Origin: a virus
Length of the DNA stretch: 41,303 bases
Virus record (IMG/VR): IMGVR_UViG_3300010224_000024
Direction: 5' to 3' (one strand)
How positions within the stretch are numbered: the first letter of the stretch is position 1; each line of letters starts with the position of its first letter. The notes beneath the pieces are model-generated. The model ran no database searches, was not told the origin of the DNA, and saw nothing but the letters and a program-made list of their open reading frames with translations. Made by a program: the position numbers and the translations under genes. Shown here piece after piece: positions 3,039 through 25,507 of the stretch.

Positions 3039-4285
3039 CAGGTGACAATCAGTCGGTAGTAGAGGGCTGGGATGACGTGACAGGCGCCGGGCGTGCCGGT
3101 CTTGGAAATCACCACGATGATGTTGACGGCAGAAGCGTCAAGCGCGGCATCAATTTGCTGGTCATGCTGCACGATGGTCGATGCGGCGTCCGCGTTTGTG
3201 CTGAACGACGCGATCAGCGACGCCGTGGTTGCCGCATTCTGGTAGTCGAGGTTAACCGTGTAGTAGTTGGACCCGTCATTGGTCGTCTGAACGCGGGACG
3301 TGACCGCCCATCGCGTCAAATAGAGTTCAAAATCCGACCGTACGGCTGCGCGCCACGACGTAAAGGCGCTGGACACGTTGAAGAAGGAATTTGCACCCTC
3401 GCTCAAGCCAGAGGGCAACGCATACTCCTGGGCCGTCAGCCAACGCGTACCGTCGTAGAAGCAGAGAAGATTTAGGTCTGTGCGGTAGAACTTGTCATTC
3501 AAAGCGGGCGAAGCCGGGAAGCTCGTTCCTTCCGCGTATCCCGAAGTTGGCCCGGAGTAATTGATAACTGGGTTCGCCGGGTCGGTGTTATCGACGGTGA
3601 TGTTGTCTCCCGACGACACCGTCTGCACGGCAGGGCCATCGGCCACGCTCACCGCGTTAGGGCCGAATTCCACCCATTGCGAGGAATCAGCATCCACGTA
3701 CCAGACGTACTCTGTGCCCGTGGTCGTGTCGATCCAGCGCATGCCGGCGACGGGCGAGGACGGTGCCGTGTCGGAAAGGACGCGAATGTCCTTTTCCTCA
3801 ACGCTAGATGCCCGTCCCTTGGCATCAAACGTGACCGTGACGGCCTTTGTCGCGTCGCCATACGTGCCGGCCGTAACGCCCGTGTCGGACAGGTCAGGCG
3901 TGGTTATCCCGTCAGAGTCCGTGGTCAGGGTGACGTTATCGGACTCGGCAAAGGCGTCGGAAATGGCGTACCAGCCCTTCTCACCATCGGCGTTGCTGCC
4001 GTAGTACTGGGTTGCCTCGGGAGCCTCCACGTCCCCCGTGAGGAACACGCTGACAATGCCTGTCTTGAGCGTGCCTCGGGTATAGATCGAGTACTTGCCC
4101 GTGACGTTGGCGTTTTCGCTGATGGGCGTTTCTGGCGGCGTGGTCGTGACGTTGCCGATCTGGTCGGATAGGGCCTGTAGCGAGGTGGCGACGGACTGGA
4201 AAAAGACGTAGTACGGGCGGGTTGCCGTGCCACCAGTTTCGATAACAGGCTGGCGGACGCCCGGCAGGCTGACGTTAAGCGACAT
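3038..4285 (-). CDS. Tail fibre protein
   Basis: 415 aa, Ser/Thr/Gly/Asp-rich and beta-like in composition. Sits within the fibre cassette and is coupled to its neighbours by overlaps. Confidence 0.7.
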   Translation of the reverse strand: MSLNVSLPGVRQPVIETGGTATRPYYVFFQSVATSLQALSDQIGNVTTTPPETPISENANVTGKYSIYTRGTLKTGIVSVFLTGDVEAPEATQYYGSNADGEKGWYAISDAFAESDNVTLTTDSDGITTPDLSDTGVTAGTYGDATKAVTVTFDAKGRASSVEEKDIRVLSDTAPSSPVAGMRWIDTTTGTEYVWYVDADSSQWVEFGPNAVSVADGPAVQTVSSGDNITVDNTDPANPVINYSGPTSGYAEGTSFPASPALNDKFYRTDLNLLCFYDGTRWLTAQEYALPSGLSEGANSFFNVSSAFTSWRAAVRSDFELYLTRWAVTSRVQTTNDGSNYYTVNLDYQNAATTASLIASFSTNADAASTIVQHDQQIDAALDASAVNIIVVISKTGTPGACHVIPALYYRLIVT

Positions 4286-5069
4286 TGACCAGCCCGATGG
4301 CGAACCAGCTAAAGGGAATGTCGCTGGCGATGGTGTTGTTGGCGTTGGCGCCCTCGGCTACGTCAAATACCGCCGTAAAGCCTCCCGTAGTCGGCGCAGA
4401 GGTCAGATAGGGCACAACAGGACCGCCCGGCTGAACGGTGAGCGGCGTGACACCCACATGCAGGACCGTGGCAAAGGTCTTGGCGAAGGTGATGGCCTTG
4501 CTGGTCGTGAACGTGCCGCTGGCTGGCGCAGTCGAGGTGCCAGCCTGGATATAGAACGCCTTGGAGTTGGTATTGCCGGCCTGAAGGCTGGCCGTGCCAA
4601 CAGTGAGCGGGACTTCCGGGTCCTCGGGCGGGTCCTGCCACACGAGGCTGGTGCCATCCGAACCGAGAATCTTCCCGCCCTGCCCCGTGGGATCGGGCGG
4701 CGAGACAAGCTCAAGCCACTGAAGCACCGCGCCGTCGTTGGACAGCACCTTCCCAGCCTCTAGCGCCGGAATGGCCGCTCCGTCACCGCCTGGAATCTCC
4801 ACGTTGTCATCATCGGAGATGAGCGTGTCGTCGGCGGCATAGACGCGCACCCGATATGAGCCGTCGCCCCACACGTCCACGGTCGTCCGGCCATCGGAGC
4901 CTAGATCGACGCTGGAACCGTTATTGCTCGCCAAGTCGGCGTCGCCGTACACGTCCTTTGCCGTGGTCGTCCCGGCCTCGTAGAACTCGATCCGGCCACC
5001 TGCGGCAGGTGTTACCCCATCCAACAGGAAATAGACAGGGGATTGGATGGGGATGCGGAAAGCGGGCAT
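4275..5069 (-). CDS. Tail fibre / tail-attachment protein
   Basis: First gene of the fibre cassette. The N-terminus MPAFRIPIQSPVYFLLDG...GGRIEFYEAGTTT resembles virion-attachment N-domains of podoviral fibres. The call rests mainly on position. Confidence 0.6.
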   Translation of the reverse strand: MPAFRIPIQSPVYFLLDGVTPAAGGRIEFYEAGTTTAKDVYGDADLASNNGSSVDLGSDGRTTVDVWGDGSYRVRVYAADDTLISDDDNVEIPGGDGAAIPALEAGKVLSNDGAVLQWLELVSPPDPTGQGGKILGSDGTSLVWQDPPEDPEVPLTVGTASLQAGNTNSKAFYIQAGTSTAPASGTFTTSKAITFAKTFATVLHVGVTPLTVQPGGPVVPYLTSAPTTGGFTAVFDVAEGANANNTIASDIPFSWFAIGLVNVA

Positions 5070-19569: not shown

Positions 19570-19771
19570 CAGGACTGTCCTTGTCCTCAGGCTTCTGCGC
19601 CTGTCCGAAGGTTCGTTCCCAGTTGTCGGAGAACGTCTTGGGGTCCACGGTAAAAGGTCTAGGGGCTGAGCCCTTACCGCCGTCGCTCATTGCTTCCGGG
19701 GCCTTAAAGCTCTTCCACATGGCGGTTACTACCGCGACAAGGCACTCGCCCCATACGCCACCGAAGATCAT
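19553..19771 (-). CDS. Small membrane protein (72 aa) at the end of the lysis cassette
   Basis: The ATG at 19771 overlaps the Rz stop (ATGA). The N-terminal hydrophobic segment is MIFGGVWGECLVAVVTAMW. Confidence 0.55.
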   Translation of the reverse strand: MIFGGVWGECLVAVVTAMWKSFKAPEAMSDGGKGSAPRPFTVDPKTFSDNWERTFGQAQKPEDKDSPDEQAP

Positions 19772-20244
19772 TGCCTCTCCACCCTCAAGACTTCTTGGAG
19801 TCGCCGGATTTGATCGTCCTGTCGCTGGACGATGGGGTAGCTGGCTCGAAAAAGATCGAGCGCAACTCCTGCGCACCCGTTGGCGGTTGCATCAGATTGG
19901 CTGGCACGGGTTGCAGCCTCATTGGCGAGGCGCTGTGTTGCCCACTGGTCGCGCAGCCGCAGATTGCCAGCGCGCAGCTCAGCGATAACGCCATCAGCCT
20001 TAGCTTTCGCATGCTTCTTGTCCTGTTCGTACTGTTGGGCGATGGCCTGGAATTGCTCGGCTTGGGCGTGTTCGGCTGCCCTAGCCTTCTCCGATGCCTT
20101 CAGACTGGCGTCCAGTTGGGCTGCTCGCGATTCGGCCTGATGCTGACGATCAGCGGAAACAGCCAAAGCCCCACGAAAGTGCATGGCGAACATCACCGCC
20201 GTGACCGCCAGCAAGGCCAACGCAGCGAGCAGGTACTTGGTCAC
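19768..20244 (-). CDS. Rz: i-spanin (Rz-like)
   Basis: N-terminal TM segment, a coiled-coil body and the Rz-family motif AELRAGNLRLRDQW. An embedded lipoprotein ORF lies in another frame. Confidence 0.85.
   Translation of the reverse strand: MTKYLLAALALLAVTAVMFAMHFRGALAVSADRQHQAESRAAQLDASLKASEKARAAEHAQAEQFQAIAQQYEQDKKHAKAKADGVIAELRAGNLRLRDQWATQRLANEAATRASQSDATANGCAGVALDLFRASYPIVQRQDDQIRRLQEVLRVERQ
19785..20012 (-). CDS. Rz1: o-spanin (Rz1-like lipoprotein) embedded within Rz
   Basis: Lies wholly inside Rz in a different frame. It has a signal peptide and lipobox (LSLSCALAICGC) and a Pro-rich mature part. Confidence 0.75.
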   Translation of the reverse strand: MRKLRLMALSLSCALAICGCATSGQHSASPMRLQPVPANLMQPPTGAQELRSIFFEPATPSSSDRTIKSGDSKKS

Positions 20245-20582
20245 GCTTCAGCCGGAACGGCGATGTGGTTATCCCGCAGAATCCCTTCCAGCTGGCGCAC
20301 GCGGTCGCGCAGCTTGGAGCTAGCCATCTTCTCGGCCTGTAGCTCGTCCCACAGCTTGCTGTACTTGGTTTCCAGGGACTCAACGCGCTCGATCAGTTGC
20401 TTCACCTGAGCGGCGGCAGCATCGGTCACCGTGGCATCGGCCTTGTACTCACTTACGGCAGCATCGGTAGCCGCCTGAGCCTTGGTGCGGTCGTTACGTC
20501 CCTGGATGAACTGCCAGACGTTGCCGACAAACGCCAACCCAGCCACCAGCCATGCTGGCAGCTCTGTCCCTGATTCGATCAT
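20241..20582 (-). CDS. Holin-like / lysis-associated membrane protein (single N-terminal TM plus coiled coil)
   Basis: It has the TM segment LPAWLVAGLAFVGNVWQFI. It lies between endolysin and Rz, with overlaps on both sides. Confidence 0.55.
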   Translation of the reverse strand: MIESGTELPAWLVAGLAFVGNVWQFIQGRNDRTKAQAATDAAVSEYKADATVTDAAAAQVKQLIERVESLETKYSKLWDELQAEKMASSKLRDRVRQLEGILRDNHIAVPAEA

Positions 20583-21013
20583 TACGCCACCGCCTCAAAC
20601 AATGCTTTCTCGGCAGTGCGCCGCTTGGTCAAGCCAGCTACTTGCTGGCCGTTGTCGTGATCCCAGCGCAAGAACTCAGCCGCCGCACCTTCGTAGTCGC
20701 CAGCGTTGAGCTTCTTGAGCAAGGTGGAGTGCATCAGGGCATTAGCCCCGCAGTTGAAGGCGAACACCACCAGCGCATCGAACTGGCACTGGCTCACGGG
20801 AACCTTAACCATGCCGTTGACCGCATGGACCGTGGCCGCTACATCCGCCTTCAGGAACGCTTCGGCCTGAGCCTGCGTGATGGTGTCGCCCATCCGCACG
20901 CCAGCGGTATGGCCGCAGCCAATGGTGGGCACGCCGCCGCCATCCCGATACGCCTCCAGCCTGCATCCCTCAAAGTGACGGATGAGGTCTAGGCCGCGCT
21001 CGGAGATGTTCAC
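20582..21013 (-). CDS. Endolysin, GH24 lysozyme (T4/lambda R-like)
   Basis: MNISERGLDLIRHFEGCRLEAYRDGGGVPTIGCGHT carries the catalytic E-x8-D-x5-T pattern of the phage lysozyme family. Confidence 0.9.
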   Translation of the reverse strand: MNISERGLDLIRHFEGCRLEAYRDGGGVPTIGCGHTAGVRMGDTITQAQAEAFLKADVAATVHAVNGMVKVPVSQCQFDALVVFAFNCGANALMHSTLLKKLNAGDYEGAAAEFLRWDHDNGQQVAGLTKRRTAEKALFEAVA

Positions 21014-21444
21014 TTGCGTGCCTTCCGAACAGTGGGCCGCACGCTATCGACGCCGCACCCGGTTGAGTTGTCGCGGGTTGCCGCGTATTCGATGGCCTCA
21101 GCAGCCGTTTTGCCGTGATCCATGGCGGCAGTAGCCCAAGCCCAGCCGGAACCGATGGCGATGCGCTCAGAGGCGGAACACGGGATTTCCGAGCCGTTCT
21201 CCCACACGGTTACGTGCCCATGGACGATGGCGATAGCGCCGAAGTCGTCCAGGTCAGGAGCCTTGCCCTTCTTGCCGCCTTGCACCCACTTCAGGAAGCG
21301 GGCGATCTGCTCGACGCTACCGGCGCAGGCTATGTAGCCGCCCGGTATCTCGCGGAGCTTCGGGGCCGCCCGCCATACGGCACCCTGAGAACTGGTCTTG
21401 CGGTCAGCGGCCAACGTCTTGCCGTCATAGGCAATCGTGGTCAC
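21010..21444 (-). CDS. Proteasome beta-subunit / HslV-like Ntn hydrolase
   Basis: The N-terminus MTTIAYDGKTLAADRKTSSQG matches the T1 nucleophile signature TT-x-(n)-DG-x-x-LAAD-x-[RK]-x-[ST]. A candidate Lys33 equivalent is PKLREI. A C-terminal IAIGSGWAWATAAM...A...RD..TG block is also present. Confidence 0.7.
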   Translation of the reverse strand: MTTIAYDGKTLAADRKTSSQGAVWRAAPKLREIPGGYIACAGSVEQIARFLKWVQGGKKGKAPDLDDFGAIAIVHGHVTVWENGSEIPCSASERIAIGSGWAWATAAMDHGKTAAEAIEYAATRDNSTGCGVDSVRPTVRKARK

Positions 21445-21683
21445 TTGATCGGCCTTATGTCTGCCTTTCCCTCAGCGGCCAATAGGTCGCCAAGCTTTAC
21501 CTCGCCCTTGCCCGAGACACAGGCGTAGACCGTGCCGTCCAACAGCGTCAGGGATTCGATCTTGAGCCGCTTGGCCAGCGCAAAGGCATTGGCGAACCAC
21601 GCCTCACCCTCACGGACGAACACCTCCGTTTCGCCGTATTCGTCATCCGGCGTGGAGGGTTCGTCACTCATCAGGCTCACCAA
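21441..21683 (-). CDS. Hypothetical acidic protein (76-80 aa) coupled to the Ntn hydrolase gene
   Basis: ATGA overlap with the downstream gene. The likely ATG at 21671 gives MSDEPSTPDDEYGETE.... Confidence 0.6.
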   Translation of the reverse strand: MVSLMSDEPSTPDDEYGETEVFVREGEAWFANAFALAKRLKIESLTLLDGTVYACVSGKGEVKLGDLLAAEGKADIRPIK

Positions 21684-21744
21684 AGAACGGGGACAGCGCA
21701 GACGCCAGCATCACCAGCAGCCAGATTAGGCGGGCTAGGAGCAT
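21664..21744 (-). CDS. Possible 26-aa hydrophobic peptide (MLLARLIWLLVMLASALSPFFGEPDE)
   Basis: ATG at 21744; its end overlaps the start of the next ORF by 8 nt. The upstream part of the 117-aa track ORF looks non-coding. Tentative. Confidence 0.3.
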   Translation of the reverse strand: MLLARLIWLLVMLASALSPFFGEPDE

Positions 21745-21961
21745 GGCGGTCTCGGTTGGATAGTTGCCGCTGTGCGTCGCGGCCGGGTTGGGACCCGTAA
21801 CGTTGCCCGTGCAAGGCAGAGCGTCCCTTACGCTTGGATGTTCCTCACCCAAGAAGGCCGCTTCGGCTTGCACACCTACAGCGGGACTCGGTTGCCGCCC
21901 GGTTCTGGCTTGCCGGGTCTTGCGTGACCAATGGGAGTGACGGTAGAGGCTGGGCGGCAGA

Positions 21962-22570
21962 TCAAAGGGTGTCGCTGTCCCGGCTGGGCGCGCGGTGGAA
22001 ATTTCCATCCCCACCACGGCTCAGCTCGTTTTCCGAAGGAACAGCACCCCTTACCCTCAGTGTCCCACGCTGAATCTGCGAACCGCATCGACGTTCATAA
22101 AATGCCACTTGCCGGAAGGCGATGCCGTACCGCTCCCAATACTCCGAAAGGCTCTTGGCGAGACGGCGGCAGATGGCGTTGCGCAGGCGTCGGTAGGTGT
22201 TCCGATGCACTCCCAGGTCGTCCGCTAGAACCGTGTAAGGCGCAATCTCCCTGTTGAAGATGAGCATGTACAGGGCATCCCATCCGGCCACGCAGGCAAG
22301 CTCGTCGCTGTACACCTCACGCTTCACGCCACCATCCATGCAGTAGGCGATGGCGAAGGCTACGACCCACTGGCGCAGCATTGGAAGGTGGCAGGAGTCG
22401 CCGCAGTAGGCGGTTCGGGCTAGCTCCCAATTAGGAAATCCATTGCGCCAATCCGTTCGCACCATCCGGTCGGCGTCGATATGGGTTGCGGTGACGCCGC
22501 ACACCATGGCCGTATCGAAGTCATGGCCGCGCACGTCGTAGTCGCCAACTTCTTTCAGCAGCGCGTTCAT
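21962..22570 (-). CDS. Putative late-gene regulator at the Q position (HTH-containing)
   Basis: It is the last early-right gene before a ~220-bp non-coding leader and the lysis and morphogenesis genes. It has an HTH-like segment LADDLGVHRNTYRRLRNAICRRLAKSL. No confident family assignment. Confidence 0.5.
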   Translation of the reverse strand: MNALLKEVGDYDVRGHDFDTAMVCGVTATHIDADRMVRTDWRNGFPNWELARTAYCGDSCHLPMLRQWVVAFAIAYCMDGGVKREVYSDELACVAGWDALYMLIFNREIAPYTVLADDLGVHRNTYRRLRNAICRRLAKSLSEYWERYGIAFRQVAFYERRCGSQIQRGTLRVRGAVPSENELSRGGDGNFHRAPSRDSDTL

Positions 22571-24964: not shown

Positions 24965-25507
24965 TCAGACCTCGCAGAGCTTGAAGTTTGCGAAGGAGTT
25001 AAGCGCCGCTCCCGCTACCTCGGTAAGCGACTCAACGATTGACCTTGCCGCCTGATCGGAAAGCGCGCCGACACTGACCCATTCGCCATGGACAGCATCA
25101 GCGGCCATGTGCTTGAGAAGTGCCGCCTCAACGATCAAGGCTTCTTTTTTTGTGCTGAACCAAGCTGAGTACGTCCAGAGCTTCGGCAGCGGATTGCCTG
25201 TCTTTATCCCGGCCATGCGTGCCTTCACGTTCTTCGCCACGCCGATCTTCATATGCGACGCGCGCTCGTTTTCCCCATAGAACGAAAGGTAGACGTAGGT
25301 ATGGTCGCCAGTTGACTCGCACTCCCTCAGCGCGCGGAACATCTCCGTCCGCGTTTGATCGAGATAGCCGGGCGGGAAAGGCATGCGCCTAAGAAACTCG
25401 AACAACTCATAGATCGTAGCCACATGGTCCGACGTGACCTTGTCCTTCAATTGCTGCAAGCCGTAGGCAAGGTTGTTGAAGTCGACCTCTTCAGTCGTTG
25501 CGCTCAT
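24965..25507 (-). CDS. T5orf172 (MUG113, GIY-YIG-like) domain protein, copy B
   Basis: TYVYLSFYGENERASHMKIGVAKNVKARMAGIKTGNPLPKLW...HGEWVSV aligns by eye with copy A. The gene has lower GC than its neighbours. Confidence 0.7.
   Translation of the reverse strand: MSATTEEVDFNNLAYGLQQLKDKVTSDHVATIYELFEFLRRMPFPPGYLDQTRTEMFRALRECESTGDHTYVYLSFYGENERASHMKIGVAKNVKARMAGIKTGNPLPKLWTYSAWFSTKKEALIVEAALLKHMAADAVHGEWVSVGALSDQAARSIVESLTEVAGAALNSFANFKLCEV

Follow-up and report, generated by a model that had tools for sequence, protein, structure and literature searches.

What would a proteasome-type peptidase be doing at the head of the lysis genes of a temperate phage? This question is raised by IMG/VR record IMGVR_UViG_3300010224_000024, a viral stretch of 41,303 nucleotides that was analysed as a whole and is called the window in the following. 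On its minus strand, the interval 21010-21744 (-) contains three overlapping open reading frames (ORFs) that encode 26, 76 or 80, and 144 amino acids. The last and longest of them, located at 21010..21444 (-), begins with a GTG codon, and the N-terminus of its product reads (M)TTIAYDGKTLAADRKTSSQG or, in a longer excerpt, (M)TTIAYDGKTLAADRK. An earlier note on this DNA had interpreted this start as the Thr1 signature of an N-terminal nucleophile (Ntn) hydrolase. Judged by sequence profiles and a structural model, the 144-aa protein is indeed an Ntn hydrolase of the proteasome-beta/HslV type and, by the same standards, a member of the PPH family, which has been known since 2021, and hence no new kind of system. 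We consider it likely that it is a minimal enzyme of this family: an active cytoplasmic threonine peptidase that is made late in infection and forms rings similar to those of HslV and the bacterial proteasome homologue (BPH), with no ATPase encoded by the phage.

The assignment is carried by the relatives of the protein and by its predicted fold. The 144-aa sequence matches PHROG 1040 ('peptidase HslV family') with E 1.7e-26 and has 312 homologues at E<=1e-3 in a set of 5.8 billion proteins, some of which are named HslV or 20S subunit in their sources and some of which carry PF00227. A family profile was derived from 51 of these homologues: When compared with the PDB, it retrieves HslV (E 9e-10 to 1e-7), archaeal beta subunits (2e-8), and BPH (2e-7) as well as eukaryotic beta subunits, and 20 of the 51 relatives match PF00227 (Proteasome) at E<=0.01, no other Pfam family being matched. 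An AlphaFold2 model based on the homologue alignment (predicted local distance difference test, pLDDT, 94.9; predicted template modelling score, pTM, 0.89) consists of 11 strands and three helices, which are arranged as a core of two sheets with flanking helices. Foldseek's 50 best PDB matches to this model are without exception HslV, 20S subunits or BPH (query TM score 0.61-0.79, the topmost ones 0.66-0.79), and in BFVD there are 47 phage structural relatives at E<=1e-3, including the 'Proteasome subunit beta' of Caulobacter phage CcrBL9 (TM score 0.85). A PADLOC search with the window protein gave no match. The postulated membership in the T1/Ntn class is thus borne out both by the profiles and by the fold.

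The reading frame is a real gene and not a chance ORF of a genome with 62% G+C, because it has these homologues, matches a PHROG, and differs from its closest relative in a biased manner. Between the window gene and this relative, a 92% identical PPH found on contigs L008-L010, 39 codon differences are synonymous and 12 non-synonymous, and third positions account for 46 of the 61 base differences; by this comparison of sequences, the gene is under clear purifying selection. An inactive remnant was considered as well and rejected in view of this selection and of the conserved catalytic residues.

These residues were examined at two depths. In the alignment of the 51 sequences, T2, D14, K29 (within PKLREI), and G42 are invariant, as are A96, G98, and G100 of the AIGSG block, with S99 of the same block, D125, and G129 being nearly so; the motifs that had been named at the outset, the lysine of PKLREI and the AIGSG...RD..TG block, therefore coincide with invariant or near-invariant positions. 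For residue counts, 250 family members were aligned to the family profile: Directly after the start methionine, 246 of them have a threonine and three more a serine, so that the N-terminal threonine is conserved, and the equivalents of Asp17 (249/250), Lys33 (249/250), Gly47 (247/250), Ser129 (233/250), and Asp166 (223/250) are retained to a similar or slightly lower degree. An MTT start is found in 193 of the 250 members, whose median length is 146 aa. The family is devoid of a propeptide, because the match begins at protein residue 1 in all but two of the 150 best profile matches in a library of 1.84 billion representatives; in the window, no other start codon separates the GTG from the preceding in-frame stop. 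Since there is no propeptide, removal of the initiator methionine would expose the threonine nucleophile, with Thr2 becoming residue 1, and this step alone may suffice to yield an active peptidase. Methionine aminopeptidase tolerates threonine as the second residue, and HslV of E. coli, which likewise starts with MTT, matures by methionine removal. At the opposite end of the protein, a basic tail characterizes the closest PPH clade (P0003, P0004, P0005, P0008, P0016, P0017): It reads RPTVRKARK in the window (21010-21036) and RRKPARKG, KRKGKK or RKRQGAKNRGR in other members, and is absent from more distant ones.

Proteins of this kind were described from sequence by Fuchs et al. in 2021, who collected 324 of them (PMC8665760). 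The authors' PPH set is represented by WP_042125023.1 and stands beside the sets AAH, CPH, RPC, and BPH. According to that paper, PPH is a group I proteasome-like family of about 140 residues, encoded by Caudovirales and by bacterial genes that are flanked by phage genes; its members have a Thr1/Asp17/Lys33 triad plus Gly47, and together with their relatives, RPC, they alone lack helix H2. In the features compared, the window protein corresponds to the description in its length of 144 aa, in a model that is devoid of H2 and keeps H1, H3, and H4, and in its Thr1/Asp17/Lys33 triad with a Gly47 oxyanion hole and no propeptide. It is also carried by a tailed phage, since the window is P22-like and encodes a portal, a coat protein, a terminase, and an S24 repressor. 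Specific to the window are the three-ORF module, its location in front of the lysis cassette of a P22-like phage, and the tail sequence RPTVRKARK, a basic tail being common to the closest clade. The earlier note had known of no role for such a protein in a phage lysis or late operon; this still applies, as no later work on PPH function was found in the full-text literature, but the family itself had already been described (PMC8665760). Some phage genome papers label such genes BPH. Today the family goes far beyond the 324 sequences of 2021, because we count 782 clusters at 50% identity with E<=1e-30 and 9,419 at E<=1e-10; 254 PPH loci were confirmed in IMG/VR, and 24 GenBank phage records, distributed over podo-, sipho-, myo- and jumbo phages, contain a PPH gene. 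Lengths of 190-230 aa are reached by about 6% of the best family matches, which consist of an N-terminal PPH domain and a C-terminal extension (P0123, P0125, P0142, P0145, P0151, P0192, P0196, P0233, P0247); these probably represent the RPC group of PMC8665760.

The most conspicuous deviation from HslV concerns the helices. The model contains only three of them, at residues 44-55, 101-109, and 114-124, which correspond to H1, H3, and H4: After the oxyanion-hole glycine, HslV has two helices (H1 and H2), whereas the 144-aa protein has one, and the profile alignment places an HslV insertion of 18-20 residues exactly at the position of the missing H2. The absence of this helix accounts for most of the shortfall of about 30 residues relative to HslV, which had been noticed correctly from the start. 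HslV (ClpQ), the peptidase of bacterial HslUV and a dodecamer of two hexameric rings, shares with PPH the MTT N-terminus, the exposure of Thr1 by methionine removal, and the catalytic residues; of all solved structures it comes nearest in the profile search, and it also ranks among the best matches of the fold. Apart from its greater length and its H2, it differs in that structural alignments give only 16-21% identity, in that PPH has no match to the NCBIfam HslV model, and in that no hslU is adjacent to the window gene among the ORFs scanned. BPH (PDB 5OVS; TM score of the fold match about 0.69) likewise belongs to group I and has neither a propeptide nor a known unfoldase, according to PMC8665760. 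In contrast to PPH, which we know here from sequence and a single-chain model, BPH has a length of about 190-200 aa, possesses all four helices, and assembles into double rings of heptamers.

In the mechanism that we favor, PPH would be produced late in infection, along with the products of the lysis and virion genes, and would assemble into HslV/BPH-like rings via the retained surfaces of H3 and H4, the helices by which the rings of proteasome beta subunits mainly contact each other (PMC8665760). It would then act in an ATP-free manner and with no ATPase of the phage on peptides or on loosely folded or unfolded proteins of the host or the phage, a mode of action that the same paper proposes for BPH and the uncapped 20S particle. 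Several points weigh against this proposal. On its own, the window protein has no match in a Pfam scan at E<=1 and hence stays below the gathering threshold; NCBIfam yields nothing but a weak match to the archaeal-beta model TIGR03634 (16 bits vs a cut-off of 224), and a PDB search with the single sequence gives chance matches only. Because these single-sequence searches failed, the homology to HslV and the proteasome rests on the family profile and the structure, and membership in the PF00227 superfamily is transitive and structural, the relatives being matched while the window protein is not. Furthermore, H1-H4 take part in inter-subunit contacts of the proteasome, HslV, and BPH, and connectase, which has neither H1 nor H2, is a monomeric ligase (PMC8665760); the loss of H2 could for this reason abolish ring assembly. 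No activity, oligomer or expression data for any PPH were found in the literature searched. Late expression, finally, would follow from gene position and overlaps only, with no promoter or terminator found, and some phages carry PPH among early or replication genes or beside an integrase, so that late timing is not general for the family.

The case of connectase suggests what PPH could be if it formed no rings: a monomer with one defined target, on which it would act by site-specific proteolysis or transpeptidation. The parallel is that connectase is a proteasome homologue that lacks H1 and H2 and functions as a specific monomeric ligase (PMC8665760), and that PPH lacks H2. However, PPH keeps H1 in addition to H3 and H4, the helices of the ring-ring contacts, its AlphaFold2 model has no connectase-type insertions over the active site, and its closest relatives are the ring-forming HslV and BPH, which makes this possibility very improbable in our estimation.

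If, as we propose, PPH does form rings, the next question is whether it works by itself. The earlier note had found no gene for an ATPase partner, and we come to the same result: There is no AAA+ unfoldase among the window ORFs scanned, which were not all ORFs of the window, and none among 89 representative neighbors of PPH genes from 77 viral contigs. Because no phage ATPase gene accompanies PPH, any unfoldase that serves it would have to be derived from the host. PPH rings might thus dock on host HslU (ClpY) or on another AAA+ unfoldase and constitute a hybrid ATP-dependent protease that redirects host proteolysis. HslV proteins are the closest solved relatives of PPH by sequence, which would suit such a docking, and HslV-like genes with no HslU are mentioned in phage genome papers (PMC7823757). 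On the other hand, the outer surface of a protein that has lost H2 and is about 30 residues shorter must be unlike that of HslV, and BPH, also of group I, manages with no known unfoldase (PMC8665760). We therefore regard the hijacking of a host unfoldase as unlikely.

As the PPH gene does not stand alone, we also considered the two ORFs in front of it and the lysis genes behind it. Compared with L008, the window is 82% identical in nucleotide sequence between 21762, about 18 bases ahead of the 26-aa ORF, and 21020, less than 10 bases short of the stop codon of PPH; the stretches adjacent to this region show 43% and 22% identity, and the 50 bases that follow the PPH stop are unrelated to L008. 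Since the similarity ends sharply at both edges, the three ORFs constitute a discrete mosaic module, which gives the cassette proposed in the earlier note a firm outline. Its G+C content is 0.627 (window: 0.622). The members of the module are tightly interlocked: At 21441-21444, the stop codon of the 76-aa ORF shares bases with the GTG start of PPH, and at 21010-21013 that of PPH shares bases with the GTG start of the endolysin gene. Overlaps had been predicted for both junctions and exist at both, but their sequence is GTGA and not ATGA.

The ORF directly upstream of PPH is acidic, as had been stated, with an isoelectric point of 4.49 and 15 Asp and Glu vs 9 Lys and Arg. It extends over 21441..21671 (-) when started from the ATG at 21671, which is the 76-aa form used by gene callers, or over 21441..21683 (-) when started from an alternative TTG at 21683, which results in 80 aa. 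The 76-aa product is 62% identical to a 76-aa ORF upstream of the closest PPH in L008, with 18 synonymous and 29 non-synonymous codon differences and 34 of 63 differences at third positions. Further homologues were found neither in GenBank phages nor, beyond the protein itself, in the set of 5.8 billion proteins, and there is no similarity to the upstream neighbors of other PPH genes. The AlphaFold2 model of the 76-aa protein is of low confidence (pLDDT 67.8) and has no fold match. A conserved partner of PPH was rejected as an explanation for this ORF, which was found beside PPH in only one related lineage, the L008-type contigs. The hydrophobic 26-aa ORF MLLARLIWLLVMLASALSPFFGEPDE (21664..21744, -), whose presence had also been noted, is a coding candidate only and might specify a single-pass membrane micropeptide. 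It overlaps the 76-aa ORF by 8 nt (ATGAGTGA) and is not called by gene callers. In L008 it is intact, with three conservative substitutions, 89% nucleotide identity, and four synonymous vs three non-synonymous codon differences; at the level of sequence, these differences are compatible with coding but no proof of it.

Together, the three products could process or degrade a lysis regulator or an envelope protein and in this way set the timing of lysis. Three features of the locus and its relatives invite this idea: In the window, PPH is translationally coupled to the endolysin by the overlap; at least five distinct related phages have it immediately in front of a holin-like ORF with two transmembrane segments and an endolysin gene; and the position of such a holin-like ORF in front of the window endolysin is empty, the module bringing along a hydrophobic peptide ORF of its own. 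L008, for comparison, has downstream of PPH a 64-aa holin-like ORF with two transmembrane segments and an unrelated endolysin, whereas the window PPH adjoins the endolysin directly. The order is similar in contigs L001-L007 and L018 (PPH 50-63% identical), where a metallophosphoesterase gene is followed by PPH, a 58-65-aa holin-like ORF with two transmembrane segments, an endolysin, and a terminase gene. Yet PPHs that are 52-56% identical are found after a head-tail adaptor or beside an integrase, with no lysis gene in the flanks examined, and more distant ones are found among early or replication genes. Moreover, the 76-aa and peptide ORFs were found beside PPH only in L008-type contigs, and PPH itself has neither a signal peptide nor a transmembrane segment. 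A role in lysis timing thus strikes us as distinctly unlikely, and proximity to lysis genes characterizes certain lineages, not the PPH family in general.

This becomes evident from a survey of 77 IMG/VR loci, from which the representative neighbors mentioned above were taken. The immediate neighbors of PPH fall into 46 upstream and 43 downstream clusters, a diversity that led us to reject a universal genomic partner. The largest upstream cluster, with nine loci, is the head-tail adaptor Ad1. Among the annotated neighbors, late or virion functions are represented by large terminase, head closure, portal, scaffold, and head morphogenesis proteins, early or replication functions by DNA polymerase, primase, NinB, NinG, and a methyltransferase; the ratio of late modules, with lysis, head-tail adaptor, and terminase genes, to replication modules is about two to one. 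In L019, PPH lies between an excisionase-type helix-turn-helix gene and an integrase gene, and among cultured phages an N4-like Vibrio phage, Edwardsiella PEi21, and Ralstonia YL1 have PPH among early or unknown genes. Given these diverse neighbors and the lack of an unfoldase among them, PPH is portable and self-contained, and its varied genomic positions point to an accessory function that is complete in itself, not to a dedicated component of lysis.

Some of these neighborhoods deserve a description of their own. At least 11 viral contigs have PPH directly after the head-tail adaptor Ad1 (phrog_477), the two genes either abutting or sharing 1-4 bases (L022:1561-2495; L023:3657-4426; L033, L046, L047, L051, L052, L070, L086, L094, and L101, each at about 3500-4430), and the PPH proteins of these contigs are 33-56% identical to that of the window; head closure Hc1 (phrog_161) is among the annotations of downstream neighbors. 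A recurrent insertion of PPH into the head-completion module is not mentioned in the accessible part of PMC8665760. In the 60-kb contig L020 (3232-5017), PPH is located between an SU10-type portal gene and a 309-aa ORF that matches only an unannotated PHROG and is followed by the major capsid gene. The interval between portal and capsid genes is the usual place of prohead proteases. In contigs of the L001-L007/L018 type, the upstream gene overlaps PPH by four bases and encodes a protein of 356-363 aa (L002:2913-4004, L006:274-1362, L004:2916-4004, L018:2434-3504), which combines an N-terminal cysteine-rich motif resembling a zinc ribbon (CxxC...C...H) with motifs of calcineurin-like metallophosphoesterases (GDxH, GDxxH, GNHD, HHGH, and GHxHH; Pfam Metallophos E 8.5e-5).

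A more specific variant of late action would be that PPH is no general peptidase but a phage-specific effector with a defined target, which either degrades a defence or envelope protein of the host during assembly and lysis or is packaged into the virion, with the 26-aa and 76-aa products serving as localiser or inhibitor. Packaging would fit the recurrence of PPH after the head-tail adaptor, between portal and capsid, and before holin and endolysin. We hold this variant to be possible but rather doubtful.

Upstream of the module, the position that PPH occupies in the window can be compared with that of known phage cargo. The gene that precedes it, at 21962..22570 (-), encodes 202 aa and lies where lambda has Q and P22 has gene 23. 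The earlier note had called it a regulator at the Q position: The position is correct, but the identity as a regulator finds no support in a family assignment, as the protein has neither a PHROG nor an NCBIfam assignment, and a weak match to HTH_23 (E 0.0087) is all that marks this unannotated family. Its 74 homologues are all unannotated, and none has a Pfam domain; that the protein is a Q-like regulator is a guess from position alone. One homologue is encoded in a Dyella jiangningensis genome, which, as a matter of sequence, hints at a Xanthomonadales-type host. In two related phages, L104 and L105, the 202-aa gene likewise precedes a variable slot and a lysozyme gene: The slot of L104 is filled with a MUG113/T5orf172-domain gene and two small ORFs, that of L105 with a 79-aa ORF, a 1.2-kb gap, and a holin. 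The MUG113-domain gene of the L104 slot is located at L104:4033-4554, and a T5orf172/MUG113-domain gene is also present in the nin-like region of the window at 24965-25507 (-). Because the related phages carry different cargo there, what lies between the Q-position gene and the lysis genes can be regarded as a cargo slot of variable content, in support of the analogy to the stx position drawn in the earlier note. In Stx phages, stx sits between Q/PR' and the lysis genes. The window cargo thus occupies the same genomic slot as such lambdoid cargo, whose content varies among related phages, but differs from it in that it overlaps the endolysin gene, has no detectable promoter or terminator of its own, and is not a toxin.

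In between lies a non-coding gap of 217 nt (21745..21961, -), within which the module shared with L008 starts at about 21762. Neither in this gap nor in or around the module was a consensus for a sigma-70 promoter or an intrinsic terminator found; the gap contains no Rfam family, and its fold energy is no better than that of shuffled sequence (z -0.32). With these results, the 'late leader' of the earlier note, understood as a structured RNA or as a promoter or terminator, is unsupported. A non-coding stretch of 92 nt (21759-21850, -) is 72% identical to L105:5304-5395, about 140 nt upstream of the L105 holin, and may be part of a late promoter or leader, the comparison comprising two sequences only, from which covariation cannot be judged.

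The slot raises the further possibility that the module is a lysogenic-conversion moron, which the prophage would express to the advantage of the lysogen, as with stx at the analogous position. Morons have a promoter and a terminator of their own and often a deviant base composition. The variable slot and the sharp boundaries of the module would be in keeping with this possibility, but the module and its surroundings are free of promoter-like and terminator-like sites, its G+C content is like that of the phage, and PPH genes are widespread among virulent phages, N4-like and jumbo phages among them. Because PPH overlaps the endolysin start, the module reads as part of the late operon, and we consider a moron extremely unlikely.

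The phage as a whole is temperate and P22-like, and the window is nearly full-length, the longest contig with an identical 76-aa protein measuring 41,456 bp. Its genes include a P22-type portal, a coat protein, a gp3-type small terminase, a large terminase, and an S24 repressor as well as RecT, an O-like helix-turn-helix protein, and a P-like helicase loader. No near relative was found among GenBank phages and no close relative in 185,579 species genomes. On the minus strand, replication and nin-like genes are followed by the 202-aa gene, the gap, the three ORFs, the endolysin gene, the gene of a 113-aa protein, an Rz gene with an embedded Rz1, and the terminase genes. The endolysin (20582..21013, -) had been named correctly: It belongs to the Phage_lysozyme family (PF00959, E 9.3e-48) and to PHROG 7 (endolysin). 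The 113-aa protein encoded behind it in the lysis cassette (20241..20582, -) has one N-terminal transmembrane segment and a long coiled coil, and may be a holin or another lysis factor; a small holin ORF with two transmembrane segments before the endolysin is absent from the window phage and present in relatives. In L104, a 104-aa ORF (L104:6173-6487) follows the lysozyme gene and encodes a hydrophobic N-terminal segment and a C-terminal stretch that, by inspection, resembles the coiled-coil region of the window protein. The Rz-like spanin is encoded at 19768..20244 (-; PHROGs 1327 and 2466), and out of frame within its gene lies a 75-aa Rz1-like lipoprotein ORF (19785..20012, -), which starts with a lipoprotein-like signal (MRKLRLMALSLSCALAICGC) and continues with a body that is rich in proline, again as in Rz1.

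Protein turnover in cells depends centrally on threonine proteases of the proteasome type, and the PPH family carries this class of enzymes into tailed phages. New in the present analysis are the boundaries of the module, its variable-slot context, the family-wide absence of a partner gene, and the recurrent embedding of PPH in late modules. The window locus is tractable, as it consists of a temperate P22-like phage with a compact module of three ORFs, which has clear boundaries and lies at the start of the putative late operon. The family-wide picture, with no unfoldase gene and with late modules recurring, yields concrete hypotheses on the timing and the autonomy of PPH; and should the protein turn out to be a late effector that acts on a defined target, a proteasome homologue of viruses would for the first time have a functional role.

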